From positions 8,791-72,790 of the forward strand of contig CAYTUG010000005.1 in assembly GCA_964441275.1 (NCBI GenBank): DNA of 64,000 bases, in the 5' to 3' direction. Under the pieces are notes generated by a model, which saw only the letters and a program-made list of their open reading frames with translations, was not told where the DNA came from and searched no databases. This stretch comes from an uncultured Christensenellaceae bacterium. Its GTDB lineage: Bacteria; Bacillota; Clostridia; Christensenellales; SZUA-584. Below are positions 2,071 to 62,921 of the stretch, in pieces (position 1 is the stretch's first letter; every line of letters starts with the position of its first letter). Position numbers and translations under genes: made by a program.

Positions 2071-2344
2071 AAGTCCTCCCATAAGGTGTAATCGGGCTGC
2101 AAAATACTACTGACGTGCGCGGAATAAAAAATAAATAGAACAGGCAATCTTGACAATTGAACTAACCAGTCCGGCACTTGTTGCCTTATTTTATTCATAA
2201 CCGCGCCCATATAGTTTTACAGCACAGCCCAAATGTTTTATAAACTCTTTATTACTTATTGTAACAGCCGGAAGAAAAGAATGCACATTTTTTTAACCGC
2301 CGGCTTTCATTTAGCGCTGCAATCCTCATGTTATTGTTATAACA

Positions 2345-2403: not shown

Positions 2404-3447
2404 ATGAAACGTTCACTTCTTATAGTTTCTGTTTTGCTCGTAGTTGCTTTTCTTATTTCTTGTGCGCCCGAAGTAAAACCTCCGGAGGCGTCTTCAAATC
2501 CAACGCCGGCGCCAACGCTTGCCCCCACGCCTGGGCCCACAATTGAAATAACCGCCGCGCCCACACCCGCGCCGCTTACCTCGTTTACCACGGGACTGCC
2601 GTTTGAAGGCGAGTATAAACCGGTTATGGTGGTTATTGAAAATTCGCCCGCTGCACGCCCTCAGTTGGGTTTGCAGACCGCCGATGTCGTATATGAAGTG
2701 CCTGTGGAAGGCAGCATTACCCGCTTTGTCTGCGTTTTTTCCGATAATGTCGCGGAAAAGGTGCAACCGGTAAGAAGCGCGCGCATTCCTTTTATTTATT
2801 TGCAAGGCGAGTGGGAAGGAATACTAATGCATTTTGGCGCAGCGGGCAGAAAAAAATCTCAATGGAATAGGGAATACAGCGTTTACGGCCATAAACTATA
2901 TAAAAAAAGCGGCATGGTGATGGACGGGCTTAGCGGTACTTGGAAGAATTACTTTTACCGCACTAAAACCGCCAAAGCTCCGCACAATGTGATTGGAAAA
3001 CCGTTAAATGCTGTACAATTGTATAACTACGAACCCGTTCCGCCCGGATGGTTGTTTGATAAATCCCACACATACGAAGCGGAAAACGCCGATACGGTTA
3101 ACCTGCCGATGTGCACAAAGAATAAAAATTTTGTTTCTTATTCTTACGATCAGGACAAAAGCGTTTATCTGCGCTTTATGAATAAAAAAGCGTTTATATC
3201 CGCCGAAACGGGAAAGCAAGTGAATGTAAAGAATATAATAGTGCAGCATAGTACATATAAATCTTCGTCCGGCCGCAAGCTTTGGAATCTTGTAGGCGGC
3301 GGCAAAGCCGAATTTTATATAAACGGCAAAAAAATTGACGGCAGTTGGGAACGGGAGTCCGACAACAAAAAAACCGTATTCCTCGATTCGGGCGGAAAAC
3401 AGATAATCTTATCGCCCGGTAACACATGGGTGCATATTTGCCCATAA
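2404..3447 (+). CDS. DUF3048 (YerB-like) lipoprotein
   Basis: Lipobox AFLISC and a Pro/Thr/Ala linker, followed by TGLPFEGEYKPVMVVIENSPAARPQLGLQTADVVYEVPVEGSITRFVCVF. This closely parallels the conserved core of B. subtilis YerB / DUF3048. Confidence 0.75.
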   Translation: MKRSLLIVSVLLVVAFLISCAPEVKPPEASSNPTPAPTLAPTPGPTIEITAAPTPAPLTSFTTGLPFEGEYKPVMVVIENSPAARPQLGLQTADVVYEVPVEGSITRFVCVFSDNVAEKVQPVRSARIPFIYLQGEWEGILMHFGAAGRKKSQWNREYSVYGHKLYKKSGMVMDGLSGTWKNYFYRTKTAKAPHNVIGKPLNAVQLYNYEPVPPGWLFDKSHTYEAENADTVNLPMCTKNKNFVSYSYDQDKSVYLRFMNKKAFISAETGKQVNVKNIIVQHSTYKSSSGRKLWNLVGGGKAEFYINGKKIDGSWERESDNKKTVFLDSGGKQIILSPGNTWVHICP

Positions 3448-3466: not shown

Positions 3467-4267
3467 TTGATGACCGAATTACGCGGATTGCAGCTGGCCG
3501 AGCTAAATATATTGCTTGATGTGGATGATTTTTGCCGGAAAAATGATATTCCGTATTTTTTAGCCGAAGGAACGTTATTAGGCGCTATCCGCCACAAAGG
3601 GTTTATACCCTGGGATGATGATTTAGATATAATGATGAAGCGCAGCGATTATAACAGGTTTCTTGAAATTGCGCCCAAAGAGCTTAAAGAAAAGTACGAA
3701 GTTCAGCATTCAACAACTGTAAAGAATTACTGGTCACCATTTATCAAGGTGCGGTTAGTGACCGGCGAGCAAAAATACCGTCAGCAGCACATCGCACACT
3801 TAACAAACAACAACGGGCCTTGCATAGACATATTTCCGATTGAATATGTCCCCCGGCAAAAGAGTTTAGCGCAAAAATTTCAAAGCAATTATATTAAATA
3901 TTTAAGAGGAATGCTAAGCCTTAAGCTAAAAATTGTTTGTCCAAAAAGCCTCAAGCGGCGCATGTTACGTTTTATTTCATTGTTTTACAGCATAGACGCA
4001 ATACATAGGCGATTAGAACGCACGTTTAACAAGTATAACAACAAAAAAGAAAACTTTATGGCCATACTCGCCAGCTACCAAAGAATAGAATGCCAAACCG
4101 TACCGGCACATATATACGACAATTTCGTATTTAGAGATTTTGAGGGTCATAAACTGCCCGTTCCAAAAGATTATGATTTTTTGCTAAAGCGCATATACGG
4201 CGATTACATGACTTTGCCGCCGGTTGAAGAAAGAGCAGTCAAGCATCATTATATGAAAGATAATTAA
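3467..4267 (+). CDS. licD: LicD-family phospho-headgroup transferase
   Basis: [50 protein letters not shown] is the canonical LicD N-terminal nucleotidyltransferase-fold motif ([17 protein letters not shown]). RBS AGGAG lies upstream. Confidence 0.85.
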
Positions 4268-5403
4268 GCATCAGCCGCCGCCAAAGGCGGGCAATCTGCA
4301 TCGGCTGCATTTGTTAATTTTTCGATAAACTCCACTACCCTTTCAGTCGAGTTTTCATCATGATAATCGAAATATTCTTGTTTTATTCTTTTTATCCTGC
4401 CGATATCCGGCTTAATATTGTTTATTTCATAAACAAGCTCGTCAAACGTTTTTGTAATTTTGCCGGGCACAAATTCCTCATAGTCCATATAAAAACCCCT
4501 GGCTTGCTTATAGTTATCAAGATCGGGAGCATGGAATATCATTGGACGTTCCAATATCGCATATTCGAACATAATAGTTGAATAGTCGCTCACCAGTAAA
4601 TCCGCGGCACACAGAACGGATATCAAATCCTCGTTTGTTAAATCAATAACATTTTCGGGACAACAAAAATCTCTTATCAAGGGATGAAGCCTGATGGCCA
4701 AAGTATATTTATCCTTAATTTTTTCCGCCAACCCTGCGATATCGATAGGAAGCATGGAAACATCGTCTATGCCTCCGCCTCGAAACGTTGGCGCATACAA
4801 AACAACTTTGCCGTTTGGAATGGCGTATTTATCCGAAATAATCTTTTTTAAGCTGTTTGTCCTCTCTTGATTAAAAAGCGCGTCCGCCCGGGGCGAGCCA
4901 AGCGCATACACATTTTTAATCGGTATATTAAGCGCATCGGCATAAATAGCGCGCACTTTTTCACAGCTTGAAATTGCAAAATCGCACGATTTGATATTAT
5001 AAAGCCTTTTTTTCGTGTCGCTTCCAAACTTTTTTAACGCGCCGCAGGCGTGCCAGATTTGCAGCACTATGGTTTTTCTTTTTTTGATTATTGCATTCAT
5101 AACAACGCTGTTAGCGTCAAGCACCACAACTTTTGCGGTGTTGAAAAAATAGGCTTGCTTTATAATATTTATAAAATACAGCAGTTTGCTTTTTAACGTG
5201 CCCTCGTACTTTTTTAAAAGCAGCACAACGTCATAGCCGCCTTTTTGTTCAACGGCTTCGCAAATGGCTTTAAAGTTCCCCTCCGGCTTGTTTGAAAAGT
5301 ACGAAATAAAAACGATCCTGTTTGCTTTAACGGGCATAAAGCGTGTAAAAATGTTTATTGTAAAAGCGATGGCGTATACGATTATTTTAAAAAGTTTTAG
5401 CAT
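4264..5403 (-). CDS. CDP-glycerol glycerophosphotransferase family protein (TagB/TagF-type)
   Basis: N-terminal membrane-association helix. It carries VLYAPTFRG and the ...[31 protein letters not shown]... motifs typical of Glyphos_transf enzymes. Its stop overlaps the licD stop (TTAA, convergent). Confidence 0.8.
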
Positions 5404-5431
5404 AGCGCCCCTTAAGCCGCTTCAAGCGTAT

Positions 5432-6163
5432 TTATTTCAAACTATTTATGTACTTTTCAACAATCTGATCTACATCCCCTTGGGCAATTAGTTTGCCCTT
5501 TTGCAAAAATATTGCCCGGTTGCAAAACTGTTTAATCGCATCGACGCTGTGGCTGACAAACAATACAGTTATCCCGCTTTCAATCATCTCTTGCACTCTG
5601 TCTTTGCATTTTTCCTGAAACTTATTGTCCCCAACGCTTAGAACCTCGTCAATAATCAGTATATCAGCGTCTATGTTAACGTTGATGGCAAACCCGAGCC
5701 TTGCCCGCATACCGCTTGAATACGTTCTTACAGGTTGATCTATATAATCTCCTATATCCGCAAACCTTATTATGGCCTCCTCAAGCTTTCCTATTTTCTC
5801 TTTCGTAAGCCCTAAGATATAGCCGCGAAGATATATGTTTTCACGCCCTGTCATCTCTATATCAAAACCTGCGGTAAGCTCTAAAAGAGCGCCGACTTGA
5901 CCGTCAACAAATATTTCGCCGCTTGTAGGGTATGTAACGCCGGTTATAAGCTTAAGAATAGTCGATTTGCCTGCGCCGTTTCTTCCTATAAACCCAACGC
6001 TTTCGCCCTTTTTTACCGTAAAGTTTATGTTGCTCAACGCAAGCACTTTTTTAGATTTGATTTGCTTTCTCAAAAACAAAGCTAAAAACCTTTGTTTGTC
6101 GTTTTTAAACAGTCTGTACGACTTTGTAACATTTTTAAATGATATAGCTATATCTTGTCCCAT
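5432..6163 (-). CDS. tagH: Polysaccharide/teichoic-acid export ABC transporter, ATP-binding subunit (TagH-like)
   Basis: Walker A GRNGAGKST, signature YSSGMRARLGFA, Walker B ILIIDEVLSVGD. It lies directly downstream of an ABC-2 permease gene. Confidence 0.85.
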   Translation of the reverse strand: MGQDIAISFKNVTKSYRLFKNDKQRFLALFLRKQIKSKKVLALSNINFTVKKGESVGFIGRNGAGKSTILKLITGVTYPTSGEIFVDGQVGALLELTAGFDIEMTGRENIYLRGYILGLTKEKIGKLEEAIIRFADIGDYIDQPVRTYSSGMRARLGFAINVNIDADILIIDEVLSVGDNKFQEKCKDRVQEMIESGITVLFVSHSVDAIKQFCNRAIFLQKGKLIAQGDVDQIVEKYINSLK

Positions 6164-6177
6164 CGATTACACCATTC

Positions 6178-6975
6178 CTATATAACGTCAAGCATACGTT
6201 TTCTTAACCTTCTATAAACAAGAGAACCTAAAACAACAACGAGCAACAGCAAACAGAGAAAGCCTATAAGCTCGTTAGGCGATTCGAAAAACCACTTCTT
6301 ATATAAAAAAGTGTTTCTGTAGCCGTCAATAATATAACTGACAGGGTTTAACTTCATAATTTTTCTCAACAGCCCTGGTTTTAACGATGCGGGGTCCCAT
6401 ATAATACCTGATAACCAGAATATTGCCGTAATAATAGATTTTAATAAGTTAATAAAATCTTTGCTGATACAGCTTAAGGGGGCTGTTATCCAAGTCAGGC
6501 ATGTAAAAAAAATATACATAACCGGCATATAGAACAATATTTGGATGTTATAAATAGACGGCGCATAACCGGCAAATATAAGTATAACATATGAAATAGC
6601 AATAAGCCCGATGTGCACATACAACCTTGAAAGCGTGACAAAAGTCATGATAGTTGAAACGGGAAAGGGCATTTTTGTTGCGAAATGATTATATCTTCTG
6701 ATTGAGTTCGCGCCGTCAATTATAGAATCCCGTATAAAAAACCAAGTGACAATACCAATCGTTAAAAATAATATGTTTGGCACCCCGCGCACGCTCGTGC
6801 TTGAGCGCAACCCAATCTCAATAGTAAACCAAAGCACAAATATTTGGACAAGCGGCCTTATTATCGCCCACAGTGGCCCAAGTGCAGAGCCTTTATATGT
6901 CTGAATAAGATCGCTTTTAGCTAACTTTAAAATTTGCCTAAAAAATTTTTTGTTCTCCCTAAGTATAAAAAGCAT
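6178..6975 (-). CDS. tagG: ABC-2 type polysaccharide/teichoic-acid export permease (TagG-like)
   Basis: 265 aa, about 6 TM helices, N-terminal ...DLIQTYKGSALGPLWAIIRPL... motif typical of TagG/Wzm permeases. It is paired with the TagH-like ATPase. Confidence 0.8.
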   Translation of the reverse strand: MLFILRENKKFFRQILKLAKSDLIQTYKGSALGPLWAIIRPLVQIFVLWFTIEIGLRSSTSVRGVPNILFLTIGIVTWFFIRDSIIDGANSIRRYNHFATKMPFPVSTIMTFVTLSRLYVHIGLIAISYVILIFAGYAPSIYNIQILFYMPVMYIFFTCLTWITAPLSCISKDFINLLKSIITAIFWLSGIIWDPASLKPGLLRKIMKLNPVSYIIDGYRNTFLYKKWFFESPNELIGFLCLLLLVVVLGSLVYRRLRKRMLDVI

Positions 6976-7100
6976 TTTGCCGCCGCCTCGCTAAATTACT
7001 TTTGCAATTATAATATATTTCTACCATTTTGCCAAGTTAAGCTTTGAATGCAAAAATAGCGTTTGCAAATTAAAGCGTTTTGGCGCGTATATCTTTTAAA

Positions 7101-7129
7101 TTGACCGAAAATTTTTACTATGATAAAAT
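7101..7129 (+). promoter_or_regulatory. Sigma-A-type promoter of the phosphonate operon
   Basis: TTGACC (7101-7106), 17-nt spacer, extended -10 TGaTAAAAT (7121-7129), 64 nt upstream of ATG 7193. Confidence 0.55.
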
Positions 7130-7192
7130 TCGTTTGGGTATTTAGTATCATAAAATTAGCAGATAAACGTTTTAGGAGTATATTATTAACAA

Positions 7193-8497
7193 ATGAAACA
7201 AAAGAAAGTATACATCGCAATGTCTGCCGATGTGCTGCACAACGGCCATATAAAAATAATCGAGGAAGGCGCAAAGCTTGGTGAGGTTACTATCGGCCTG
7301 CTGACAGACGAGGCAATCGCCACGTACAAAAGAATGCCCGTTTTCGGATACGAAGAGCGCCACCGCATACTTTCAAGCCTGCGCTATGTAAGCTGCGTTG
7401 TCAAACAAGCCACTCTTTCGTATGCGGACAATCTAAGGAAACTCAAACCCGATTATGTAGTACATGGAGATGATTGGAAGACGGGTATTCAAGCAATGGT
7501 AAGGGCGGAAGTTATCGATGTGTTGTCCGAATTCAAAGGCAAACTAATAGAAATACCGTATACTAAAGGCGTTACCGGAACTGAGATCGAAAAAACGTTG
7601 CGCCCTATACTAAATACTCCGGATATAAGGCGGGCAAAGCTTAGAAAGCTGCTTAAGCTAAAGCCATACTTGCGCGTACTTGAAGCCTCAAACGGACTAA
7701 CAGGCCTTATTGTTGAAAATGCTAAAATACAGGACGGCGTTTCAATAAAAGAATTTGACGCCATGTGGGTTAGCAGCCTTTGCGACTCTTCTTTTAAAGG
7801 CAAACCGGATATCGAGCTTGTAGATTTGACAAGCCGGATAAACACTATAAACGAAATAATGGAAGTTACAACAAAACCGATAATTCTTGATGCGGACACC
7901 GGCGGACGTGTCGAGCACTTTGCATATAACGTGAAAACTTTAGAACGTCTTGGGGTATCTGCGGTTATTGTTGAAGATAAGATAGGTTTAAAACAAAACT
8001 CGCTTTTCGGCACAGATGCCGTTCAAACTCTTGACGAGCCTTGCGAATTTGCGTATAAAATAAACTCCGGAAAGCGCTCTCAAGTTACCCGCGATTTTAT
8101 GATAATAGCAAGGCTTGAAAGCCTTATAGCAAAAGCAGGCATACAAGACGCGCTAAAGCGCGCTAAGCTTTATATAGAAAGCGGCGCGGACGGCATAATG
8201 ATCCACAGCAAAGAGAAAGACGGCAAAGAGATTGCACAGTTCTTAAAACTGTTCCGCAAATATTCCGCCGATGTTCCCGTAGTCCTTGTGCCGACTTCGT
8301 ACAATCATTTTACGGAAGACGAGCTGTGCGCCATGGGCGGCAATATAATAATTTACGCAAACCACATGCTGCGCAGCGCATACCCGGCGATGTTTCAAAC
8401 GGCGCAGTCGATACTTACGCATGGCAGAAGCAAAGAAGCGGATGAAATGTGCATGTCTATAAAAGAAGTGCTTAGCCTTATCCCCGGAGAGTGCTGA
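7193..8497 (+). CDS. pepM: Bifunctional cytidylyltransferase (TagD/HIGH-type) / phosphoenolpyruvate phosphomutase
   Basis: N-terminal domain: KVYIAMSADVLHNGHIKIIEEG...VVHGDDW (HxGH cytidylyltransferase fold). C-terminal domain: ...ILDADTGG...VIVEDKIGLKQNSLFG (EDKxxxxxNS PepM signature) within an isocitrate-lyase/PEP-mutase fold. Confidence 0.85.
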   Translation: MKQKKVYIAMSADVLHNGHIKIIEEGAKLGEVTIGLLTDEAIATYKRMPVFGYEERHRILSSLRYVSCVVKQATLSYADNLRKLKPDYVVHGDDWKTGIQAMVRAEVIDVLSEFKGKLIEIPYTKGVTGTEIEKTLRPILNTPDIRRAKLRKLLKLKPYLRVLEASNGLTGLIVENAKIQDGVSIKEFDAMWVSSLCDSSFKGKPDIELVDLTSRINTINEIMEVTTKPIILDADTGGRVEHFAYNVKTLERLGVSAVIVEDKIGLKQNSLFGTDAVQTLDEPCEFAYKINSGKRSQVTRDFMIIARLESLIAKAGIQDALKRAKLYIESGADGIMIHSKEKDGKEIAQFLKLFRKYSADVPVVLVPTSYNHFTEDELCAMGGNIIIYANHMLRSAYPAMFQTAQSILTHGRSKEADEMCMSIKEVLSLIPGEC

Positions 8498-8498
8498 T

Positions 8499-9623
8499 AT
8501 GATAAATCCCAAACAGTTTTATGATTATCTGCTAACAAAAGATATATCTCTTTTTACGGGAGTGCCCGACTCGCTGCTTAAAAACCTTTGCGCCTGCATA
8601 ACGGATAACAGCGCGCCGCATATAATTGCCGCCAACGAAGGAAACGCCGTGTCGATAGCGGCGGGGTTTCATATAGCCACCGGAAAATATGGAGCGGTGT
8701 ATATGCAAAATTCCGGCCAGGGCAACGCGGTAAACCCCTTGATTTCGCTTACCGATAAAGACGTGTACAATATCCCGCTGCTGCTTATCATAGGATGGCG
8801 GGGGCAGCCGGGCGTAAACGACGAGCCTCAGCACAAAAAACAGGGTAAACTCACCCTTGGTTTGCTCGATACAATGAAAATACGCCACTTTGTGCTTGAA
8901 GATAATTTCAAACCGCAAATAGACGCTTGCCATGAATACATGAAACAAGAAAACTTGCCGGTTGCAATTATCGTAAAGGCAGACAGTTTTTCGGAATACA
9001 AGCAAACCCCGGCCGCAAAAAAGTTTGATATGCTGCGCGAGCAGGCGCTGGAACAGATACTAAACCGCTTGGACGGAGACGATTTTATAGTATCTACAAC
9101 GGGCAAAACATCGAGAGAAATTTTCGAGCTGCGGGAAAAGAGAGGCGAAGGGCACGCCAACGATTTTTTAACCGTAGGCTCTATGGGGCACTCGGCTTCT
9201 ATTGCCTTAGGAATGGCGTTAGGCGCAAAACAAAACGTTTACTGCATAGACGGAGACGGCTCTTTGCTTATGCACATGGGCGGTTTGGCAATCGCGGCAC
9301 AAAGCGCTCTGCCTAATTATAAATACGTTCTCATTAACAACGGCTCGCACGAATCGGTGGGAGGACAGCCTACCGTGGGCTTTGATATAGACATAAAAGC
9401 CATACTCAAATCGCTCGGGTTCAAACGAGTTTACACCGCGTCAACTAAGCGGCAAACCGCAAACGCAATGCAAAAGCTAAAGGCAAGAAATTTTAGCGCA
9501 CTAATTATTAACGTGTCGCAAGGTTCGAGGCAAAATTTAGGCAGGCCCACAATACCGCCCGAGCAGAACAAGAAGGACATGATGCGGCTTTTCAACAGCA
9601 AAAACAATCTGGAGAATTTTTAA
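8499..9623 (+). CDS. ppd: Phosphonopyruvate decarboxylase (ThDP-dependent)
   Basis: ThDP motif GDGSLLMHMGG...LINNGSHESVGGQ, about 374 aa. It starts 1 nt after the PepM stop. The size and split-domain layout are typical of AepY/Fom2-type Ppd. Confidence 0.85.
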   Translation: MINPKQFYDYLLTKDISLFTGVPDSLLKNLCACITDNSAPHIIAANEGNAVSIAAGFHIATGKYGAVYMQNSGQGNAVNPLISLTDKDVYNIPLLLIIGWRGQPGVNDEPQHKKQGKLTLGLLDTMKIRHFVLEDNFKPQIDACHEYMKQENLPVAIIVKADSFSEYKQTPAAKKFDMLREQALEQILNRLDGDDFIVSTTGKTSREIFELREKRGEGHANDFLTVGSMGHSASIALGMALGAKQNVYCIDGDGSLLMHMGGLAIAAQSALPNYKYVLINNGSHESVGGQPTVGFDIDIKAILKSLGFKRVYTASTKRQTANAMQKLKARNFSALIINVSQGSRQNLGRPTIPPEQNKKDMMRLFNSKNNLENF

Positions 9624-11441
9624 TTGAAAGCAATCATTTTTAATTCCGGGATAGGCAAAAGAATGGGGGAGTTTACGCAAAGCAACCATAAATCGATGGC
9701 GCTTCTTGCGGACGGCGAAACCATATTTGAGCGGCAGATAAGAATACTTGGCGAATGCGGAATCAAAAGCTTTGTAGTCACAACCGGACCGTTTGAGGAG
9801 CAGTTAAAAAGCTGCGTGCAGCGCCGGTTTTCGCATTTGCGGTTTGAGTTTGTACGCAACCCTGTGTTTGACTCCACCAATTACATATATTCTATGCACC
9901 TCGCTAAAGGCTTTTTTGATGAAGCTGCGCTGCTGCTGCACGGCGATCTTGTGTTTAACCGCGCATTGATAACGGCGCTTATAAAAGCTCCCGAGCCTGA
10001 TTTGGCGTTAGCGGACAAGACAAAACCGCTGCCCGGCAAAGACTTTAAAGCGCGCATAAAAGAGGGCCGCTTGGCTCAGGTTTCGGTAAACATATTTGAT
10101 GAGGATTGTTTTGCTTTCCAGCCTTTATATAAGCTTAGCGTAAAAACGCTGGCGGCGTGGGCGGATCGCGTGGAAAAGTTTATAGCGGCAGGCAACGATA
10201 AGGTATACGCCGAAGACGCGCTCAACGAGATATTAAAAAGCCTCGATATTAAAATACACTCGTACGAAAACGACTTTATCGATGAAGTGGATACCCCGCA
10301 GGATTTGCAGCGCGTCTGCGAGCAGATCCGGCAGTTTGATTTTGACGAGCAGCAAATTTTCAATTCGGATTATGACTTTTTAAGAATACCCGAAATACTA
10401 AAAAAAAGCGGCGCCAAACGCCCGATGCTCGTATGCGGCAAATCTTTCGACAACCTGTTTATAAGCAGTTTCTTCGCAAACCTCAACATAGATTTTGTCA
10501 GGTTTTCGGGGTTCTCGCCCAACCCTAAGTATGAAGAAGTGGCTTTGGGCGTCGAGCTGTTTAAACGGCAGGGATGCGATTTTATCGTTTCGGTGGGCGG
10601 GGGAAGCGCTATCGACACCGCCAAAAACATCAAGCTTTTTTCCGCTCTCGACAGGGACAAAAACTATCTGGAACAGCCTTTGAAATACTCCCCCGTAAAG
10701 CATATAGCGATGCCCACCACCGCGGGGACGGGCAGCGAATCGACAAGATTCAGCGTGCTTTATTACAAAGGTGAAAAACAATCGATAGCGCACGATTGCA
10801 TACTGCCCGAATACGCGATACTTGAGCCCAAGCTTTTGGAAACGCTGCCGGACTACCATAAAAAAGCCGCCATGATGGACGCCTTGTGCCAGTGTATAGA
10901 GGCGATGTGGTCGGTAAACAGCAACGAAAAATGCCGCCAGTACGCCAAAGCCGGGATCGAGCTTGCGCTTTCAAATAAGATGGGGTATTTGAACGGCAAA
11001 AAGCAAAGCATGGCGGCAATGCTGCTTGCCGCCAATTACAGCGGCAGGGCAATAAACATCTCGCAGACCACTGCGGCGCACGCAATGAGCTATAAGCTAA
11101 CCTCCATGTACGGAATAGCGCACGGGCATGCGGCGGCGCTTTGTCTTTCGGCGGTGTGGCGATATATGTTAGGGAATAGCGAGGCTCTTGCAGACTCTTT
11201 TGACGCCATATCGTCGGCATTTGGCGTTAAAAGCGTAAATGCGGCGCTTAATATGTTCGACGATATGCTCGGTTTTCTTGAGCTTGAGGCGCCTGCTTTA
11301 ACCAACCCGGAAGATATCAATATGCTTTCAGATTCAGTTAATCCGGAACGGCTGTCCAACAACCCGGTCGCTTTAACTAAGGGGGTTATAAAAGAACTTT
11401 ATAAACAGATATTTAAAACAGTATCGCATTTAGCAACCTAA
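9624..11441 (+). CDS. Fusion of a LicC/MobA-type nucleotidyltransferase and an iron-containing alcohol dehydrogenase (phosphonoacetaldehyde reductase-like)
   Basis: TTG start abuts the ppd stop (GGAG 8 nt upstream). N-terminal domain: MKAIIFNSGIGKRMG (GxGxR NTP_transf_3-type). C-terminal domain: VSVGGGSAIDTAK and ...AHAMSYKL...IAHGHAAAL (Fe-ADH metal-binding His residues). Confidence 0.8.
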   Translation: MKAIIFNSGIGKRMGEFTQSNHKSMALLADGETIFERQIRILGECGIKSFVVTTGPFEEQLKSCVQRRFSHLRFEFVRNPVFDSTNYIYSMHLAKGFFDEAALLLHGDLVFNRALITALIKAPEPDLALADKTKPLPGKDFKARIKEGRLAQVSVNIFDEDCFAFQPLYKLSVKTLAAWADRVEKFIAAGNDKVYAEDALNEILKSLDIKIHSYENDFIDEVDTPQDLQRVCEQIRQFDFDEQQIFNSDYDFLRIPEILKKSGAKRPMLVCGKSFDNLFISSFFANLNIDFVRFSGFSPNPKYEEVALGVELFKRQGCDFIVSVGGGSAIDTAKNIKLFSALDRDKNYLEQPLKYSPVKHIAMPTTAGTGSESTRFSVLYYKGEKQSIAHDCILPEYAILEPKLLETLPDYHKKAAMMDALCQCIEAMWSVNSNEKCRQYAKAGIELALSNKMGYLNGKKQSMAAMLLAANYSGRAINISQTTAAHAMSYKLTSMYGIAHGHAAALCLSAVWRYMLGNSEALADSFDAISSAFGVKSVNAALNMFDDMLGFLELEAPALTNPEDINMLSDSVNPERLSNNPVALTKGVIKELYKQIFKTVSHLAT

Positions 11442-11546
11442 AAACAATCCTGCGTTTCGAAGACTTCCCAGCAGCTAAGTTTTATCAAAAATGCGAGATC
11501 TCCAAATGTTTTTTTGTTAGCATCAACAAAAATTAATAAGCCGCGT

Positions 11547-14099
11547 TTATTTAAACAGCGAATCAAACTGCGCTTTTGCTTCTCTATTGTATTGTGCGGC
11601 ATCAAAATGATAATCCATTTTCCGTCCACCTTCAATAAAGCATTTCATGCCCTTAAGTATACCTTCAGCCGAAAAATCAACCACTATCTGGCCGTTTTCT
11701 AAAAACAAGTCTTTTGCCGTGGTGAAGTTTGAAATAATTATAGGCATGTTAAGCACTCTTGCCTCAAGCACCGCCATGCCAAACCCTTCGTACAGAGAAG
11801 GAAATACAAAACAATCGCATCGTTTCATCAAACCGAAGGGGTTATTCATCATTCCCGTTAGGATAATTTTATCTTGCAAATTATGATACGCTATTATTTC
11901 TTCGAGCGCGGGCTTAAGGTCTCCCCCGCCTATAATATACAGGCGGCAGGCAGGATAAGTTTTTATCAAGCTGGAAAACGCCTCGATTAAGTTCAAATGG
12001 TTTTTTTCCGCCGACAGCCTGCCCATAGTCACAAAGTTAGTGTCGGCGCCGTCGGGAAGCGGTATTGACATAAGCGCCTTTTCAGCTTCGTCGGTGATCC
12101 GCTCGCAATAAAACTTTGCGCCGTCCCGCTCGTAAATCTCAAACGATCCCGATTTTTTCAGCACCCTTTTGTCGCCTATTAAATTGTTAACGTATGTGAA
12201 TTTTTCTTCGGTCTCTTCGTTCGCTAAGCTTTCTCTGTTGCGCTCCATAAGGCTTTTGCCTACCGATACAATCTTATCATACTGCCTGTAAGTTGAAACA
12301 GAACTAAAAATGTTTCTTCGGGATTGCGTATATGTTTTTTGTTTGGCTTTTTCAGAGTTGTTGGCGTCCGCAAGTAAATCAGTATGCTGCCAAATAATTT
12401 TTTTAGGCCCGGGCACAGCTGCGAAAAGATGAGCAAATAAAGCGGAATACCCCGAATAATTAATCAAATAGTCAAACCTTGCGTCTCCAATACAACGTGT
12501 TAATTCACGCTCAAACAACTTTTTTGGGTAAATCTTGCGCGCAAGCCGGCCTTTCATGCCGTGCTTGTGAATATAGTGCCACCGTAAAGCTTCTGTCAGC
12601 GTAACGCAAAATCCCCCCAAACGGCAGAACACCCGCACATTTTTGTTTATTTTTTCAAGGTTGGGATAATTCGCTCTTATATTAAAGGCGATAAGCGATA
12701 CGTCAAATTTTTTATAGTCTATGCTGTTGAGCCTGTTTATCAGCGTGGTGGTCACGCCATCGGTTTTCAGCACGCCGCCGTATATGAGGATTTTCTTTTT
12801 ATTGTTGTTCAAATTTACTGTTCGGTAACTATCACTGTTTTTGTTGAATACGCAGTCCACAATCCTGCTGGCCACTTTGCCGTCTTCATAGGCGCAAAGC
12901 TGCGTTTTGAATTCTTCGTACTTTTGTTTATACCGCGCATTAATATTTTCGATATCGTTAATCCACCCGGCTATCGTCTCGATATCGTCCGAGCCCGGCC
13001 CCGGCAATTCTTCCGGCTTGAAGCATATGCCTCTGTAACCCTCGTATTCTTTTAGATCGGGAATGTAGAACAACATCGGTTTGCCGGAATTCAGATAGTC
13101 GAAAGCAATGCTCGAATAATCGGATATTAAAATGTCAACGATTGATAAGACCTCGTTGGTATCCATACTTGCAGGTATAAACCTTTTCTTTTCACTTAAA
13201 GGCAAGCGAGCGTATACCAAATGGTGTGGTCTTGTCAATACCTGATATTTATCGCCCGTTTTCACCCGCAGTCTTTGTTCAAAGCTTAACAGGTCCGCTG
13301 CGTCAACCTCAGGGGCAGAGTGGTTTTTACCCTTCCATGTTGGCGCATACAAAATTATCTTTTTATTGCTGTCTACATCAATTCCATACTCTTTTAAACT
13401 GCGTAATATTTGTTCCTTGTTTGCATTTAACAGCAAATCGTTGCGGGGAAATCCTTCTTCGATAATTATCCCATCATACAACCCTTCAAGCTTATATGAT
13501 TTTTTAAATATCCCGCTCATAAACGCATTGGGCGACGTTATATAATCAGCCATCATAAAATTTCTTAGTATGTTCTGGCTTAAAATTATGCCTTGCGGCA
13601 TATCAAACCCTAAGGCTTTTAAAGTTGTGCTGTGCCACGTGTTTACGTAAACCTGCCCCTTTTTCTTGGCAAAATATGATGTAAAAGTGGTGTTGTTAAT
13701 CAGGTATTGCGCATTCGCCAGTTTTTTAAGGTATCTAAAGCCGAAGTACTTAATAAAAAAAACGTTGCTCTTCTTGTATGCTTTTTTAAGCCTGCGCAGC
13801 TCTTGTTTCTCTCTTATAGCCCAATAATGTTTATAGCCTTTAAAACTTTCGTCGTTTAACAGCTCTTTAAAGATGGCGTACGGGTTGCATATCATGCCCG
13901 CCCCGGCGTAAGATTCGTAAAGAATTGTGTTCGCCTTTATTTTTTGCGTTTTATGATAGCGCAGATACGCCAACCTTTTGAGATTGAAAGCTTTTAATCT
14001 TTTGCGCATAAATTTGTAAGGCCTGCGCAAAACTTTTTTGACCGGCCTTGGCAGCACTTTCGACAGTATTTTTTTGATAAACCTCATCCAAAACCTCAT
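11547..14099 (-). CDS. Fusion of a TagF-type CDP-glycerol glycerophosphotransferase and a GT4 glycosyltransferase
   Basis: 850 aa. N-terminal half: ILYAPTWKG and ...ILISDYSSIAFDYLNSGKPMLFYIPDLKEYEG (Glyphos_transf). C-terminal half: ...CFVFPSLYEGFGMAVLEARVLNMPII (GT4/Glycos_transf_1 EX7E region). Confidence 0.8.
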   Translation of the reverse strand: MRFWMRFIKKILSKVLPRPVKKVLRRPYKFMRKRLKAFNLKRLAYLRYHKTQKIKANTILYESYAGAGMICNPYAIFKELLNDESFKGYKHYWAIREKQELRRLKKAYKKSNVFFIKYFGFRYLKKLANAQYLINNTTFTSYFAKKKGQVYVNTWHSTTLKALGFDMPQGIILSQNILRNFMMADYITSPNAFMSGIFKKSYKLEGLYDGIIIEEGFPRNDLLLNANKEQILRSLKEYGIDVDSNKKIILYAPTWKGKNHSAPEVDAADLLSFEQRLRVKTGDKYQVLTRPHHLVYARLPLSEKKRFIPASMDTNEVLSIVDILISDYSSIAFDYLNSGKPMLFYIPDLKEYEGYRGICFKPEELPGPGSDDIETIAGWINDIENINARYKQKYEEFKTQLCAYEDGKVASRIVDCVFNKNSDSYRTVNLNNNKKKILIYGGVLKTDGVTTTLINRLNSIDYKKFDVSLIAFNIRANYPNLEKINKNVRVFCRLGGFCVTLTEALRWHYIHKHGMKGRLARKIYPKKLFERELTRCIGDARFDYLINYSGYSALFAHLFAAVPGPKKIIWQHTDLLADANNSEKAKQKTYTQSRRNIFSSVSTYRQYDKIVSVGKSLMERNRESLANEETEEKFTYVNNLIGDKRVLKKSGSFEIYERDGAKFYCERITDEAEKALMSIPLPDGADTNFVTMGRLSAEKNHLNLIEAFSSLIKTYPACRLYIIGGGDLKPALEEIIAYHNLQDKIILTGMMNNPFGLMKRCDCFVFPSLYEGFGMAVLEARVLNMPIIISNFTTAKDLFLENGQIVVDFSAEGILKGMKCFIEGGRKMDYHFDAAQYNREAKAQFDSLFK

Positions 14100-14329: not shown

Positions 14330-14704
14330 TTACTTGACGCGATTTAGGTATTGCTCTAACTTATTTGCCGTGTGCTCGCTTATCGCGTGTTCCATACGGC
14401 ACGCATCGTGTTGGGCAATCTTATTATCTACGTTTAGCACGTCTTTCAAAAATGTTTTTAACAGCTCGTTGCGCTTTTTCACCTTTCCGGCAGCGCATTT
14501 GCCCAACTCTGTAAGCATTATCGTGCCATATTTTTGTTTAGCAATATAGCCTGAATCAGCAAGAATATTCATTGCCCTGCTAACGCTGGCGCGCGACACA
14601 TTTACAGCCTGCGCAACTTGAAAAGAATGAACGGGCTCGCCGTTTTCGGATAGTTCAAGCAATGCTTTTAAATAATCTTGTGTGGACGGAGATATTTTTT
14701 TCAT
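14330..14704 (-). CDS. DtxR/MntR-family metal-dependent transcriptional regulator (short form)
   Basis: STQDYLKALLELSENGEPVHSFQVAQAVNVSRASVSRAMNILADSGYI is the winged-HTH region of iron/manganese-dependent repressors. It is the last gene of the NifX-like operon. Confidence 0.8.
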   Translation of the reverse strand: MKKISPSTQDYLKALLELSENGEPVHSFQVAQAVNVSRASVSRAMNILADSGYIAKQKYGTIMLTELGKCAAGKVKKRNELLKTFLKDVLNVDNKIAQHDACRMEHAISEHTANKLEQYLNRVK

Positions 14705-14730
14705 TGCAATCTTTCCGGCATTGTTATCGT

Positions 14731-15120
14731 TTAGCCATTATCATGCACATGATCGCATACTGTTTTTTCAATTCCAAACCCTCGGCCTGCACCCGGCGAA
14801 CACAGGCTTTCGCCGCCCATTAGCGCGCCGGTTGCGATTTTTTCAATTACATCTTCAACCGCGCCCTCTATGCCCGCTTTAACTTCTATATCGTACTGAC
14901 AAAACAAATCGATCGCCCTTGCGCCTATGCCGCCGCAAACAATTTGTTTTACCCCCCGTTTGAATAAAAACTCGGGTATTGCCCCCGGCGCATGCCCCGG
15001 GTTAGCTACCGTTTCTTTTTTTATTACCTTGTTATCTTCAACGTCCACAAGCGTATATGTCTGGCACCTTCCAAAGTGCGGTGAAACGCTGTCAAAATCG
15101 GTCGCTATTGCTATTAACAT
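14731..15120 (-). CDS. NifX/NifB-C-terminal-like (Nitro_FeMo-Co family) protein with a Cys/His-rich tail
   Basis: ...VSPHFGRCQTYTLVDVEDNKV...GVKQIVCGGIGARAIDLF... is the typical dinitrogenase FeMo-cofactor-binding fold. It has an extra C-terminal tail, CSPGAGRGFGIEKTVCDHVHDNG. Confidence 0.75.
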   Translation of the reverse strand: MLIAIATDFDSVSPHFGRCQTYTLVDVEDNKVIKKETVANPGHAPGAIPEFLFKRGVKQIVCGGIGARAIDLFCQYDIEVKAGIEGAVEDVIEKIATGALMGGESLCSPGAGRGFGIEKTVCDHVHDNG

Positions 15121-15992
15121 AATTCCTCCTTACCGTTATCTTTTATATGTTCTTTAAGCTTGCTCCAAAGCTCTTTTATTTGCTCAACCACATCAACAAG
15201 CCCCGCTTCAACGGGCGTCATCAAGCCCTGTAACGCTTTTATTATTGCAGGCTCAAACTTTATCTTGCCGATTACGGGAACATTGTTCTTTTTGCATTCG
15301 CTTTCTATTTGCGCGCTTATCTGCGGGTTCAAGTCGTACTTATTTATGCACACATAGGCGGGTATTCTAAAATGGCGGGCCACATCAAGCACCCTGAGCA
15401 AATCACTTTTACCCGACAGCGTAGGTTCGCTCACTACAACCGCAGCATCCGCGCCTGTGATTGAGGCTATTACGGTGCATCCTATTCCGGGCGAGCCGTC
15501 AATAAGCTGCCAAGCCTCACCTTTCTGGTATTCTTTTAGATTTTCTTTTACCTTTGCGACAAGCTTGCCTGAACCTTCTTCCCCTATATCAAGCAAAGCG
15601 TGGGAGAACGTACCTCTTTGGGTGCTGTCCACATAGGTTTCACCCGTCTTTACGTCAACAAGCGAAATGGCGTTTTCGGGGCACACAAGAAAACACGCGC
15701 CGCAACCTTCGCAGTTTATGCTGTCGATTTCAATATCCTCTGTTATTGCGTCAAAACGGCATACCTCTCTGCACAGCCCGCACATATTGCACAGTTTTTT
15801 ATCTATTTGCGCCCGTTTCATTGCGTAATAATCCTGTTGGGCAATCCGATTTCCCGGGACTATAATATGCAGATTCGGAGCTTCCACATCGCAATCGGCA
15901 AAAATTATATCATCCACCAAAAGGCTGAGCGATGCAACTATAGTGCTCTTTCCGGTGCCTCCCTTGCCGCTTATAAAAACAATTTGCTTCAT
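15114..15992 (-). CDS. MinD/ParA-superfamily P-loop ATPase with an inserted 2x[4Fe-4S] ferredoxin domain
   Basis: Deviant Walker A GKGGTGKST. Two CxxCxxCxxxC motifs (CNMCGLCREVC and CEGCGACFLVCP). N-terminal CDVEAPN motif. Confidence 0.8.
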   Translation of the reverse strand: MKQIVFISGKGGTGKSTIVASLSLLVDDIIFADCDVEAPNLHIIVPGNRIAQQDYYAMKRAQIDKKLCNMCGLCREVCRFDAITEDIEIDSINCEGCGACFLVCPENAISLVDVKTGETYVDSTQRGTFSHALLDIGEEGSGKLVAKVKENLKEYQKGEAWQLIDGSPGIGCTVIASITGADAAVVVSEPTLSGKSDLLRVLDVARHFRIPAYVCINKYDLNPQISAQIESECKKNNVPVIGKIKFEPAIIKALQGLMTPVEAGLVDVVEQIKELWSKLKEHIKDNGKEELC

Positions 15993-16816
15993 GTTACCGC
16001 TCCTGCTCTGATTGTTTCGTACAGTTTTAAAAACATTTTTTTATACGGCTTATCCGCATGAACAGGCAATATCCCTTTGGAATAATCCTGCGCTATTTTG
16101 CGCGAATAAGGTATTTTCATAAGTACGGGAATGCCGAGCCGCCCGCAATAATCTTCAATGCTTTTATCGTTTTCCATAGCTTTGTTAATAACTACTCCAA
16201 ATTTTATGCCCATTTTTGTAACAAGTTTTACGGCTATCTTTAAGTCGTTTAGGCCAAAAGGAGTAGGCTCGGTTACAAGCACGCAATAATCACAACCGCT
16301 TATTGTTTTTACAACAGTACATGATGCCCCCGGCGCACAGTCAAGTATCACTGGGGCATCGCTGCGCATCATTTGTTTTAGCCTGCTTATTATAGGTATG
16401 GTAATAAGCTCCCCTATGTTAAGCCTGCCCTGAAGAAACTTGTTTCCTCCGGCTTCAATAACGCCAACTTCTCTTGGCGTTTCGTATACCGCGCCTTTTT
16501 TGCACGCTATTGTGCACGCGCCGCAGTGGTGGCACATTTGCGGAAAAACAATTATTTTACGCTTAACCGCCGCAAGCGCATTAAACATGCATGCCTTAAC
16601 GCAATCCCCGCACCCATCGCACAGCGATTCTTTTATTTTAGGAACTTGCACATACACCTTTTCGGAATGGTCTATATTTGGTTTTAAAAAAAGCGCCCCG
16701 TTCGGCTCCTCTGCGTCGCAGTCGACGTACTGGCATTGCCCAATCGCCACCGCAAGGCTTGCCGATACGGTTGTTTTACCCGTACCGCCCTTTCCGCTTA
16801 AAACTGCTATTGTCAA
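15989..16816 (-). CDS. MinD/ParA-superfamily P-loop ATPase with an inserted 2x[4Fe-4S] ferredoxin domain (paralogue)
   Basis: GKGGTGKTT, CDGCGDCVKAC and CHHCGACTIAC, plus a CDAEEPN motif. It overlaps the downstream paralogue by 4 nt. Confidence 0.8.
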   Translation of the reverse strand: MTIAVLSGKGGTGKTTVSASLAVAIGQCQYVDCDAEEPNGALFLKPNIDHSEKVYVQVPKIKESLCDGCGDCVKACMFNALAAVKRKIIVFPQMCHHCGACTIACKKGAVYETPREVGVIEAGGNKFLQGRLNIGELITIPIISRLKQMMRSDAPVILDCAPGASCTVVKTISGCDYCVLVTEPTPFGLNDLKIAVKLVTKMGIKFGVVINKAMENDKSIEDYCGRLGIPVLMKIPYSRKIAQDYSKGILPVHADKPYKKMFLKLYETIRAGAVT

Positions 16817-16820
16817 TTTG

Positions 16821-17186: not shown

Positions 17187-17226
17187 AATTTTACCTCCCA
17201 ATGGTTTTTGTTTTATACCCAAAACT

Positions 17227-52866: not shown

Positions 52867-52895
52867 TTTTTGCCTGCTTTCAGTCGTCTTACCTG

Positions 52896-54500: not shown

Positions 54501-54545
54501 TATTCCGCGTATTCCGTCAGCCGCTTTTTATTGTACCTGCCTTTT

Positions 54546-57618: not shown

Positions 57619-57648
57619 ATCCTTTCTACAATTATTGTCGCAGCAAGT

Positions 57649-62837: not shown

Positions 62838-62921
62838 AGCCCGTTACCTAAAACTCTCCCAAGTATCGCAATATCGAAATTTTAAAACAAATGGGATGTA
62901 TTTGTTCTAACTTACAGTTAT

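Follow-up and report, generated by a model that had tools for sequence, protein, structure and literature searches.

We analysed a 64-kb stretch of DNA from an uncultured Christensenellaceae bacterium (contig CAYTUG010000005.1; hereafter the window, in whose coordinates all positions are given), in which eight open reading frames (ORFs) at 3467-14099 join a three-gene phosphonate cassette to genes of the kind that assemble and export teichoic acids. Our results suggest that this locus may assemble a teichoic-acid-like glycopolymer of the cell surface, with 2-hydroxyethylphosphonate (HEP) as a building block, backbone included, a reading to which we assign a probability of roughly 45%. HEP would then play the part that glycerol phosphate plays in the classical systems. 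The reading draws on family memberships, an architecture like that of the capsule polymerase Cps3D, conserved linkage, gene fusions and a motif switch, all of them observed in silico. More tentatively, we propose that TagF-like polymerases of the type found here, with Trp-His-Ser (WHS) in place of the canonical Trp-His-Gly around the catalytic histidine, use cytidylylated HEP instead of CDP-glycerol, giving a poly(glycosyl-2-hydroxyethylphosphonate), or 'phosphono-teichoic acid', with a C-P bond in every repeat. An earlier sequence-only reading of this DNA had predicted that a PepM/Ppd cassette, placed within a locus for teichoic-acid-type assembly and export, feeds a surface glycopolymer through a cytidine donor and a LicD transferase, and this core prediction survived every test run. 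Its description of the polymer as decorated held in part: the link to a surface polymer is supported at the level of sequence, while we rank a purely decorative role of HEP slightly below one that includes the backbone.

The cassette consists of three plus-strand genes with the junctions claimed for them earlier, namely a gap of 1 nt between pepM and ppd and a ppd stop codon abutting a TTG start. For all eight ORFs the coordinates match and the family assignments agree with Pfam and NCBIfam; the motifs quoted earlier were all found, as were the motifs HNGH and GIGKR. The first gene (7193-8497) carries CTP_transf_like (PF01467) and PEP_mutase (PF13714) matches in one ORF (CT-PepM): an N-terminal cytidylyltransferase (CT) domain (7193-7612) resembling the CyTase domain of Fom1, with HNGH (HxGH) at residues 16-19, and a domain predicted to convert phosphoenolpyruvate (PEP) to phosphonopyruvate (7628-8497). 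The latter does not fall in a non-mutase clade, an outcome for which the earlier reading had allowed. It scores 384 bits against TIGR02320 (cut-off 319.55), compared with 137, 95 and 42 bits against the rival NCBIfam models for phosphonopyruvate hydrolase, methylisocitrate lyase (prpB) and CPEP mutase, and it matches PEP mutase (1M1B) at E=2e-39 versus ~1e-12 for methylisocitrate lyases. Moreover, it contains the EDKxxxxxNS signature (EDKIGLKQNS, residues 261-270, nt 7973-8002), which sets PepM apart from the remaining isocitrate-lyase superfamily proteins (Rice 2019, PMC6697681). Judged by these comparisons, the protein is a bona fide member of the PEP mutase family. The second gene (8499-9623; TPP_enzyme_N/C) encodes a thiamine diphosphate (ThDP) enzyme whose identity as phosphonopyruvate decarboxylase (Ppd) was confirmed by TIGR03297 (439 bits, cut-off 312.5) and by the ThDP-binding motif GDGS-X24-NNG at residues 252-282; it is predicted to turn phosphonopyruvate into phosphonoacetaldehyde. 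The third (9624-11441; TTG start; NT-FeADH) fuses an NTP_transf_3 domain, a LicC/PntC-like nucleotidyltransferase (NT) and second predicted HEP cytidylyltransferase (9624-10343; PF12804), to a group III (Fe/Zn) alcohol dehydrogenase (Fe-ADH) domain (10374-11441; PF00465 and PF25137) that is predicted to reduce phosphonoacetaldehyde to HEP.

The locus holds no aminotransferase, Ppd is followed by an Fe-ADH domain, and the identity between the CT domain and the Fom1 CyTase domain is ~58%; the predicted product of the cassette is therefore CMP-2-hydroxyethylphosphonate (CMP-HEP). The cytidine-activated phosphonate head group proposed earlier thus stands as regards the phosphonate cassette, and is narrowed from an unspecified phosphonate to HEP activated as CMP-HEP. 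The alignment of the CT domain with Fom1 (5X3D) spans residues 2-137 (136 residues) at E=6e-48, and the CyTase domain of Fom1 is reported to form CMP-HEP from HEP and CTP (Rice 2019, PMC6697681, citing Cho 2017). A TagD-like CDP-glycerol synthase was considered as the primary reading of the CT domain and was rejected on the comparison with TagD, which gives only 4e-10 to 1e-9; the genuine TagDs of relatives are separate 130-aa genes. The NT domain matches LicC (1JYK) at E=5e-6 and PntC (6PD1) at E=9e-6, and its G-x-G-x-R motif (GIGKR) and K23 are invariant among 31 homologues; both the CT and the NT domain keep their catalytic signatures. HEP as the substrate is indicated for the former by its identity to Fom1, and for the latter by its position as the only nucleotidyltransferase domain detected (tblastn scan) in the Lachnospiraceae-type loci described below, together with the analogy to PntC fused to a 2-aminoethylphosphonate (AEP) transaminase. 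The Fe-ADH domain is the only candidate phosphonoacetaldehyde reductase in the locus and is inseparable from pepM-ppd in relatives; we infer this role from the group III fold, the fusion and the collinearity with PepM-Ppd. Within its metal site D419, H486 and H500 are invariant in the 31 homologues, and Gln423 (residues 419-423 DALCQ, nt 10878-10892) replaces the second metal-ligand His of the classical DALTH. Gln is the majority residue in this column, and its presence suggests a three-ligand, possibly Zn-type, site.

That the phosphonate may be a backbone unit, beyond decoration, is suggested by a Cps3D-type polymerase whose donor-site motif is altered alongside HEP cassettes. In the window this is an 850-aa protein encoded on the minus strand at 11547-14099 (Glyphos_transf, PF04464, and Glycos_transf_1, PF00534). 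Its residues 45-849 align with residues 375-1139 of Cps3D (8QOY) at E=1e-102, and it matches TagF (3L7I) at E=2e-41. Cps3D, the polymerase of the poly(galactosyl-glycerol-phosphate) capsule of A. pleuropneumoniae, alternates the transfer of glycerol-3-phosphate (Gro3P) from CDP-glycerol (CgoT domain) with galactosylation (CgaT domain) and thereby makes a teichoic-acid-like polymer (PMC5974469, PMC11666461). Both activities have a counterpart here, a TagF-like (CgoT-like) domain at ~12843-13967 (PF04464) and a full GT-B/GT4 (CgaT-like) domain at ~11550-12812 (PF00534), and the apparent linker between the two Pfam matches is the N-terminal Rossmann half of the GT-B domain. The 'TagF-type domain fused to GT4' of the sequence-only reading is therefore correct as to its two domains and, given the end-to-end alignment, better described as a Cps3D-type bifunctional polymerase. 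The N-terminal TPR domain present in all CpsD homologues analysed by others (PMC11666461) was not found in the window polymerase, whose basic N-terminus of 44 residues is followed by sequence that corresponds to Cps3D from residue ~375 onwards.

The conserved residues of the CDP-glycerol site of Cps3D are F391, H479, G480, T481, P482, R542, A573, R607, S647, S648 and D652 (Litschko 2024, PMC11666461). When these eleven and the second catalytic His were mapped, the window polymerase was found to keep 10 of the 12 sites, comprising both His and eight others; H156 and H292 (Cps3D H479 and H609), T158, R219, A252, R290, S329, S330 and D334 are kept, and the substitutions are F391 to Y64, G480 to S157 and P482 to T159. 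The catalytic loop thus reads W155-H156-S157-T158-T159 (13623-13637, minus strand; translation confirmed), in contrast to the canonical W-H-G-T-P that both TagF and Cps3D show around the catalytic base His. A column scan of 9 HEP-linked against 56 other non-redundant polymerase domains revealed that only columns 157 (S versus G in 56/56) and 159 (T, L or A versus P in 55/56) separate the two groups perfectly; position 64, equivalent to Cps3D F391, likewise ranks near the top in discriminating power, and all three are named CDP-glycerol-site residues. Over the 72 non-redundant polymerase-type domains of all fetched loci, the variant motif accompanies the HEP cassette in 14 cases and occurs without it in three, whereas the canonical WHG.P is found 55 times, never with the cassette. 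The WHS type accounts for 30 of the 120 closest homologues of the polymerase, and five of six previously unseen WHS-type homologues proved to lie in an operon with CT-PepM and Fe-ADH, whereas the canonical homologue P0227 belongs to a classical TagD/TagF locus without PepM. The variant motif also occurs in GT2-TagF fusions and in stand-alone TagF proteins, all of them HEP-linked, and the form WHATT is present in small TagFs of two HEP loci. HEP-linked domains are hardly more similar among themselves (44%) than to the rest (38%), and a crude neighbour-joining tree splits the variant sequences into three clades, one each from Clostridia, Actinomycetota and Bacilli.

Two HEP loci of relatives (which we number with the prefix L) hold second TagF-GT4 polymerase copies in which the catalytic base His is replaced by Asn (L090:15084-16244 and L170:15064-17823, with the motifs WNSTA and WNGTA). 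The change is that of the engineered TagF variant H444N, crystallised as 3L7J and 3L7K, and the TagF-like half of these copies may be a pseudo-enzyme or follow another mechanism.

The remaining genes of the locus would supply transfer, priming and export. The LicD-family protein (3467-4267, plus strand; 266 aa; PF04991, E=2e-46, 159 bits against a cut-off of 22.6) is predicted to be an HEP-phosphonyl transferase or, alternatively, a builder of linkers or oligomers like CpsC, a LicD-family enzyme able to use CDP-glycerol (PMC11666461). Its IPWDDDLD segment, with the WDDDLD motif, aligns with IPWDYDVD of FKRP, to which the overall match (6KAJ) is weak, and orthologues of 47-59% identity directly follow the cassette in L006, L010, L012, L019, L029, L035 and L036. 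On the minus strand, the 379-aa TagB/TarF/CpsA-like protein TagF1 (4264-5403; Glyphos_transf, PF04464, E=1.5e-80) has an N-terminal hydrophobic helix and matches to the NCBIfam models TarL, TarF and TarB, all below the equivalog cut-offs; it is predicted to be the priming (transition) transferase. The exporter comprises an ATPase of the short TagH/Wzt type (5432-6163, minus strand; 243 aa; ABC_tran, PF00005) and an ABC-2 permease of the TagG/Wzm/KpsM type (6178-6975, minus strand; 265 aa; ABC2_membrane, PF01061, E=2e-16). In NCBIfam the ATPase is closest to two teichoic-acid export ATPases, PRK13545 with 259 bits and PRK13546 with 220 bits, neither of which reaches its cut-off; the permease has about 6-7 hydrophobic segments (Kyte-Doolittle) and weak NCBIfam matches to Wzm/RfbD and KpsM. 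Hence, the earlier call of a teichoic-acid-type assembly and export locus is supported by two PF04464 matches together with PF01061 and PF00005, with the qualification that the exporter names lie below equivalog cut-offs and the TagGH type is not distinguishable from the Wzm/Wzt or KpsMT types.

The Pfam-scanned ORFs of the window include no TagO, TagA, TagD, TarIJ or LCP gene, any of which may lie elsewhere in the genome, so that the notion of a wall-linked polymer comes from relatives such as L082, where two LCP genes and TagGH lie within the operon. In L169 a single operon holds an initiating transferase (Bac_transf), GT2, the cassette, FeADH-LicD, TagF, the polymerase and a Wzy_C protein, and the operons of L168 and L170 include Dlt-like MBOAT, carrier-protein and AMP-binding genes. 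Choline-binding-type cell-wall repeat proteins (PF01473/PF19127, faint to moderate matches) are encoded inside HEP/polymerase operons at L166:14157-16022, L168:8310-10004 and L170:8310-10004, accompanied by genes for NeuB-like proteins, CMP-sugar synthetases, giant TagF-MptE proteins and Dlt-like functions; these repeat proteins could dock on a phosphonate polymer.

Relatives were found by a search seeded only with the NT-FeADH fusion in a one-genome-per-species collection, which returned at least 405 genome stretches. Feature counts refer to the best 80 of these at least 405 loci, and the context sets are partly redundant, being only crudely de-replicated. Carriers belong to the Christensenellaceae (best match 71% identity and syntenic with the window), Oscillospiraceae, Acutalibacteraceae, Eubacterium and uncultured Bacilli, and, within the Actinomycetota, to the Propionibacteriaceae, Tessaracoccus and Arachnia, so that the loci span Bacillota and Actinomycetota; cultured carriers include Yeguia hominis, Tessaracoccus caeni HF-7 (L058), Butyrivibrio sp. 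and Anaerosporobacter mobilis DSM 15930 (L071, of the lipid-type variant), and in Yeguia hominis NSJ-40 (L014) the cassette, a polymerase and LicD stand in a row. Ppd is present in 79/80 loci and PepM in 74/80 (at least five of the six exceptions are cut by contig ends), with a CT domain on PepM in 65/80, and the gene order of the cassette is collinear in essentially all 80. LicD occurs in 41/80 loci, fused in frame to NT-FeADH in 19 and immediately adjacent in 10, TagF-like genes in 19/80 and TagH-like genes in 16/80; the earlier reading had named a lack of any co-occurrence with LicD or Tag genes as a point that would speak against it, and the related cassettes do co-occur with both LicD and TagF-like genes. 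A LicD domain is carried by 20 of the 120 best NT-FeADH protein matches, and the fusions extend to NT-FeADH-LicD-GT2 (1244 aa), FeADH-LicD (seen in L169) and FeADH-TagF-like-MptE (1518 aa). The module is conserved at 50-88% amino-acid identity over hundreds of species. Chance is excluded by E-values down to 1e-131 and by collinear conservation in dozens of genomes, and the same genes in the same order are found on a 98%-identical contig of an independent assembly, called by an independent gene caller (L081).

From these elements the following assembly line can be put together. The PepM domain would convert PEP to phosphonopyruvate, and Ppd would decarboxylate this to phosphonoacetaldehyde, pulling the unfavourable mutase equilibrium; the Fe-ADH domain would then yield HEP, and the Fom1-like CT domain, the LicC/PntC-like NT domain or both would form CMP-HEP, a structural analogue of a CDP-alcohol. 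Three transferases of the CDP-alcohol type could take this donor. The TagB/CpsA-like enzyme would prime, LicD would place HEP on a glycan hydroxyl as a linker or branch, and in the Cps3D-like polymerase HEP-phosphonyl transfer by the variant TagF-like domain would alternate with glycosylation, by GT4, of the hydroxyl left free on HEP, resulting in a poly(glycosyl-hydroxyethylphosphonate) that the TagGH-type ABC transporter would export in lipid-linked form. As HEP, like glycerol phosphate, bears a free hydroxyl, such an alternation could polymerise it. CMP-HEP is favoured as the LicD donor because of the repeated in-frame fusion of LicD to NT-FeADH (19 loci), and as the polymerase donor because of the donor-site motif switch, the one-to-one match with CpsABCD and the chemistry of HEP. 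From sequence we infer the reductase activity, the division of labour between the two nucleotidyltransferases, the donor of each transferase, the sugar, the lipid anchor and any attachment to peptidoglycan.

Several observations weigh against HEP as a backbone unit. The association between motif and cassette has a Fisher p=2e-12, a value that ignores shared ancestry, and the independent events perhaps number only one to three; moreover, the WHS-type polymerase of L167 has no cassette within 10 kb, and the S157/T159 change could tune the acceptor instead of the donor. The motif of TagF1 (WHACGALK) is of TagB type and indistinguishable from those of TagD-containing or CDP-glycerol loci, and a genuine TagD lies inside the cassette locus in L004, L057 and L068, so that CDP-glycerol and CMP-HEP can coexist. 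Nor is the absence of a nearby TagD informative, as 10 of 18 canonical loci with full flanks lack it too. The two cytidylyltransferase domains amount to a redundancy, a puzzle shared with the AEP clusters (Rice 2019, PMC6697681), and the Fe-ADH domain is not an equivalog of known phosphonoacetaldehyde reductases, with 132 bits against the 423.7 cut-off of TIGR03405 (Phn_Fe-ADH). PhpC-type enzymes are very divergent among themselves (PMC13576164). Support for every member of the module comes from sequence. Separately, complementarity between TagD and the HEP cassette was tried as a test of donor replacement and discarded: in the non-redundant set of polymerase loci whose flanks are complete, 2/10 variant and 8/18 canonical loci contain TagD (p=0.25).

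These points lend weight to a serious and only slightly less probable alternative in which HEP is a decoration only: the polymerase and TagF1 would build a conventional poly(glycosyl-glycerol-phosphate) or glycerol-phosphate polymer with CDP-glycerol from a tagD located elsewhere, and LicD alone would use CMP-HEP, esterifying HEP to sugar or glycerol hydroxyls, like phosphocholine on pneumococcal teichoic acid. It would accommodate the TagD genes beside the cassette and TagF-like genes in the three loci just named, the canonical motif of TagF1, and the 10 of 12 active-site residues that the window polymerase shares with Cps3D/TagF; it follows the published Pnt and Lic logic, and no other domain is fused to the HEP-forming enzyme as often as LicD. 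However, it leaves without explanation both the G-to-S and P-to-T changes, which are almost confined to HEP-linked polymerases, and the fusion of FeADH to a TagF-like domain. The TagD that it needs was not found in the Pfam-scanned ORFs of the 64-kb window and is lacking from 13 of 14 HEP-linked variant-motif polymerase loci, against which it must be said that many canonical polymerases likewise have no TagD nearby. On balance, we rank the building-block reading slightly ahead.

It appears improbable that CMP-HEP has another destination altogether, such as a phosphonolipid, a glycolipid or protein glycan, or a secreted small-molecule phosphonate, with the Tag-like genes being mere neighbours that serve an unrelated polymer. 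This possibility derives from a group of Lachnospiraceae-type loci (L059, L063, L067, L069-L071, L073, L074 and L080), in which PepM without a CT domain, Ppd and NT-FeADH are found with neither LicD nor TagF and instead accompany a CDP-alcohol phosphatidyltransferase, an acyltransferase, a B12-binding radical-SAM enzyme of the Fom3 class and an AMP-binding enzyme (e.g. L080:6675-7361, L059:5295-6689, L071:3608-5314, L073:2964-3620). Those loci are probably a lipid-directed, phosphonolipid branch, judging by their gene content, and possibly one in which CMP-HEP is methylated; in addition, Fom1-like CyTase-PepM fusions are known from fosfomycin biosynthesis (Rice 2019, PMC6697681). In the window, however, no CDP-OH_P_transf, nonribosomal peptide synthetase (NRPS) or other tailoring gene was found (Pfam), nor a Fom3 (B12 radical-SAM methyltransferase), Fom4 (epoxidase) or FomD, either among ORFs of >=80 aa at 1-26367 or in the rest of the window (Pfam). 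Furthermore, the genes for LicD, the TagF-like proteins and the ABC-2 exporter are interspersed with the cassette to its left and right and have a divergent promoter region in common with it, and the fusions join HEP synthesis to LicD, GT2 and TagF-like domains. Weakest of all, and highly improbable, is a catabolic or decaying locus, for although PhpC-type enzymes work catabolically in some clusters (PMC13576164), so that the Fe-ADH could be an HEP dehydrogenase of phosphonate degradation, PepM and Ppd act in biosynthesis, neither phnX, phnA, phnY, phnW nor an importer of phosphonates was found at the locus (Pfam, NCBIfam), all its ORFs are intact with their catalytic motifs, and the module is kept across hundreds of species.

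Among known systems, the cassette is closest to the phosphonyl tailoring (Pnt) pathway of Atopobium rimae, Olsenella uli and Treponema denticola, for which Rice 2019 (PMC6697681) predicts a tailoring of the cell surface by PepM, a cytidylyltransferase and LicD via a CMP-phosphonate. Both have a PepM with a fused nucleotidyltransferase, a Ppd, nearby LicD-like or glycosyl transferases and a further LicC-like cytidylyltransferase (PntC in the Pnt clusters) that is joined to, or sits beside, the enzyme acting on phosphonoacetaldehyde, and both have two nucleotidyltransferases per cluster; in the window PepM, Ppd, the LicC-like cytidylyltransferase and LicD all lie within 10.6 kb. They differ in that an aminotransferase leads to AEP and CMP-AEP in Pnt clusters, while here the Fe-ADH domain predicts HEP; in that the NT domain of the window is only distantly related to PntC (E ~1e-5); and in that neither a TagF-like/Cps3D-like polymerase nor a TagGH-type exporter is described as part of the Pnt module in the consulted passages of that paper. 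From its gene content the cassette is thus best described as an HEP variant of the Pnt pathway, with Fe-ADH in place of the AEP transaminase. The fosfomycin pathway of Streptomyces wedmorensis (Fom1 CyTase-PepM, Fom2 Ppd, FomC Fe-ADH) takes the same four chemical steps to CMP-HEP and shares the CyTase-PepM fusion architecture and the similarity of the CT domain. Fom3, Fom4 and FomD, by contrast, have no counterpart in the window, which has an extra LicC-like nucleotidyltransferase fused to the dehydrogenase, and CMP-HEP is a transient antibiotic intermediate there while here it would be a polymer donor.

As regards assembly, the closest system is that of A. pleuropneumoniae serotypes 3 and 7 (Litschko 2018, PMC5974469; Litschko 2024, PMC11666461), in which CpsA, a small PF04464 TagB-like primer, CpsC, a LicD-family Gro3P transferase, the polymerase CpsD and an ABC exporter, encoded together with CpsB, correspond to TagF1, LicD, the window polymerase and TagGH, and the product is a teichoic-acid-like poly(glycosyl-polyol-phosphate). 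A TagD-like glycerol-3-phosphate cytidylyltransferase is predicted in the capsule gene region (PMC5974469), and it is this slot of the CDP-glycerol synthase that the HEP cassette occupies in the window. The capsule system differs further in its Gram-negative host, its poly-Kdo lipid anchor and KpsMT exporter, in a CpsD TPR domain that is needed for linker elongation, and in its use of CDP-glycerol with WHGTP where the window polymerase reads WHSTT. Wall teichoic acid systems (TagO/A/B/D/F/G/H and LCP) resemble the locus in the catalytic histidines of the TagB/TagF family, in a TagGH-type ABC-2 exporter and, in relatives, in the LCP ligases and Dlt-like genes mentioned above; they differ by TagO, TagA, TagD and LCP, not found in the 64-kb window, by the short type of TagH here, and by the predicted C-P bonds. 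By homology, the assembly genes can be regarded as a Gram-positive counterpart of the CpsA/C/D capsule system and of type II wall teichoic acid synthesis. In the pneumococcal Lic system (LicA/LicC/LicD1/LicD2), similarly, a LicC-fold cytidylyltransferase activates the head group and LicD-family enzymes transfer it to teichoic-acid sugars, and several LicD paralogues per locus are common in relatives; unlike imported choline, the phosphonate head group would be made de novo from PEP, with no need for a kinase step. HEP has been proven chemically in bacterial polysaccharide only in the phosphonoglycans of two actinomycetes, Glycomyces sp. and Stackebrandtia nassauensis (Yu 2014), which represent the PhpC-type HEP branch of PepM clusters and, being exopolysaccharides, differ from the polymer proposed here (as cited in PMC8942020 and PMC13576164).

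The sequence-only reading had called such chemistry little-described; the idea is less new than this suggests, since the Pnt logic has already been published (Rice 2019, PMC6697681). That study identified 1,485 motif-bearing PepM proteins, ~60% of which carry a fused domain, nearly always a nucleotidyltransferase. HEP-type neighbourhoods account for 8.5% of the pepM clusters, and only two of ten families have yielded isolated products (Li and Horsman 2022). In a literature search that covered subscription journals poorly, we found nothing on a phosphonate-containing teichoic-acid-type polymer that went further than Rice 2019 and Li and Horsman 2022, and neither the NT-FeADH fusion nor the WHS-type polymerase turned up in any report. 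What appears new here, from the sequence comparisons, is the polymerase active-site variant tied to the HEP cassette. Phosphonate tailoring of bacterial surfaces has been predicted from genomes to be common, yet the steps after the CMP-phosphonate and the final structures are little characterised; the locus and its relatives offer a compact, recurrent and tractable module (a three-gene CMP-HEP cassette, LicD, a TagB-like primer and a Cps3D-like polymerase with a diagnostic active-site variant) spread among Clostridia, Bacilli and Actinomycetota of gut and environmental origin. The donor specificity of a defined polymerase subfamily is a specific prediction, and cultured carriers exist for wall chemistry.

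If the polymerase does use CMP-HEP, its product would be the first teichoic-acid-type polymer with C-P bonds in the backbone, and the G-to-S and P-to-T switch beside the catalytic His would be the first donor-specificity determinant of the TagF family. A hydrolysis-resistant C-P bond would replace one of the two P-O ester links per repeat, which should change the susceptibility to phosphodiesterases, and phosphorus would be locked in a form that most neighbours cannot scavenge. Such a polymer would bear on the recognition of gut Firmicutes by phages and antibodies, on the resistance of wall polymers to phosphodiesterases, on phosphorus cycling in gut and rumen, and on the chemo-enzymatic synthesis of non-hydrolysable teichoic-acid mimics. 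Should LicD add HEP as a head group and nothing more, the locus would still show, in uncultured lineages abundant in the gut, an HEP equivalent of the phosphocholine decoration of pneumococci.

The locus does not behave as a discrete mobile island. The possibility of a mobile genomic island was rejected, as there are no flanking direct repeats, no tRNA and no marked GC deviation. In L001, a Christensenellaceae metagenome-assembled genome (MAG) and the closest species-level relative, both flanks and the LicD-TagF1-TagHG-cassette part are syntenic with the window, and the polymerase gene (window 11547-14099) is replaced by genes for a polysaccharide-deacetylase/GH16 protein, a GT2 and an alanine-racemase-like protein (L001:13091-17709); this genome also has a second LicD fused to NT-FeADH. 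The lack of island signatures and the replacement of the polymerase together point to a variable, serotype-like surface-polymer locus. In L165 two serine recombinase genes (373-2088 and 15375-16751) enclose the complete module of HEP, LicD and polymerase genes, which here includes an additional TylF-like methyltransferase, and this bracketing suggests that the module can travel on a mobile element.

The two divergent operons of the locus are separated by a 217-bp intergenic region (6976-7192) between the permease gene and pepM. The best two sigma-70-like promoter matches of a 12.8-kb scan lie in this spacer, one per operon and facing outward: TTGGCA-17-TATAAT (11/12) at 7035-7007 on the minus strand and TTGACC-17-TAAAAT with an extended TG at 7101-7129 on the plus strand, both being consensus matches only. 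Terminator-like sites in the promoter/terminator scan were at background (18 seen versus 17.5 expected), and Rfam gave no riboswitch or other RNA match at the gathering threshold over the whole window.

The flanks are unrelated to the locus, and the nearest relatives of the window as a whole are uncultured Christensenellaceae MAGs. To the left lie a 435-aa protein without a Pfam match that carries a signal peptide and, at its C-terminus, a transmembrane anchor (775-2082, minus strand) and a DUF3048 lipoprotein with a Pro/Thr/Ala-rich linker (2404-3447, plus strand); both are kept beside the locus in L001, L008 and L081, and their membership in the pathway is without support. The right flank holds a DtxR-type repressor, Fe-S/NifB-like genes and a fab/acc operon. 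Its first block (14330-17222, minus strand), directly right of the locus and adjoining it in L001 too, encodes the DtxR-type metal repressor, two small Nitro_FeMo-Co (NifB/NifX-like) proteins and two MinD/ParA-type ATPases with 4Fe-4S ferredoxin inserts. Further along, a separate exopolysaccharide-type cluster (51775-58944, minus strand) comprises a UDP-GlcNAc 2-epimerase (MnaA-like), a GH26 protein with CBM35, a GGDEF protein, a BcsB-like subunit and a family-2 glycosyltransferase, and is followed by four ORFs without a Pfam match (58898-63950). Between these regions, a 1200-aa surface protein with SpaA/collagen-binding domains is encoded ahead of a sortase (37516-41821, plus strand), a pair indicative of Gram-positive-style wall anchoring that fits a monoderm envelope.

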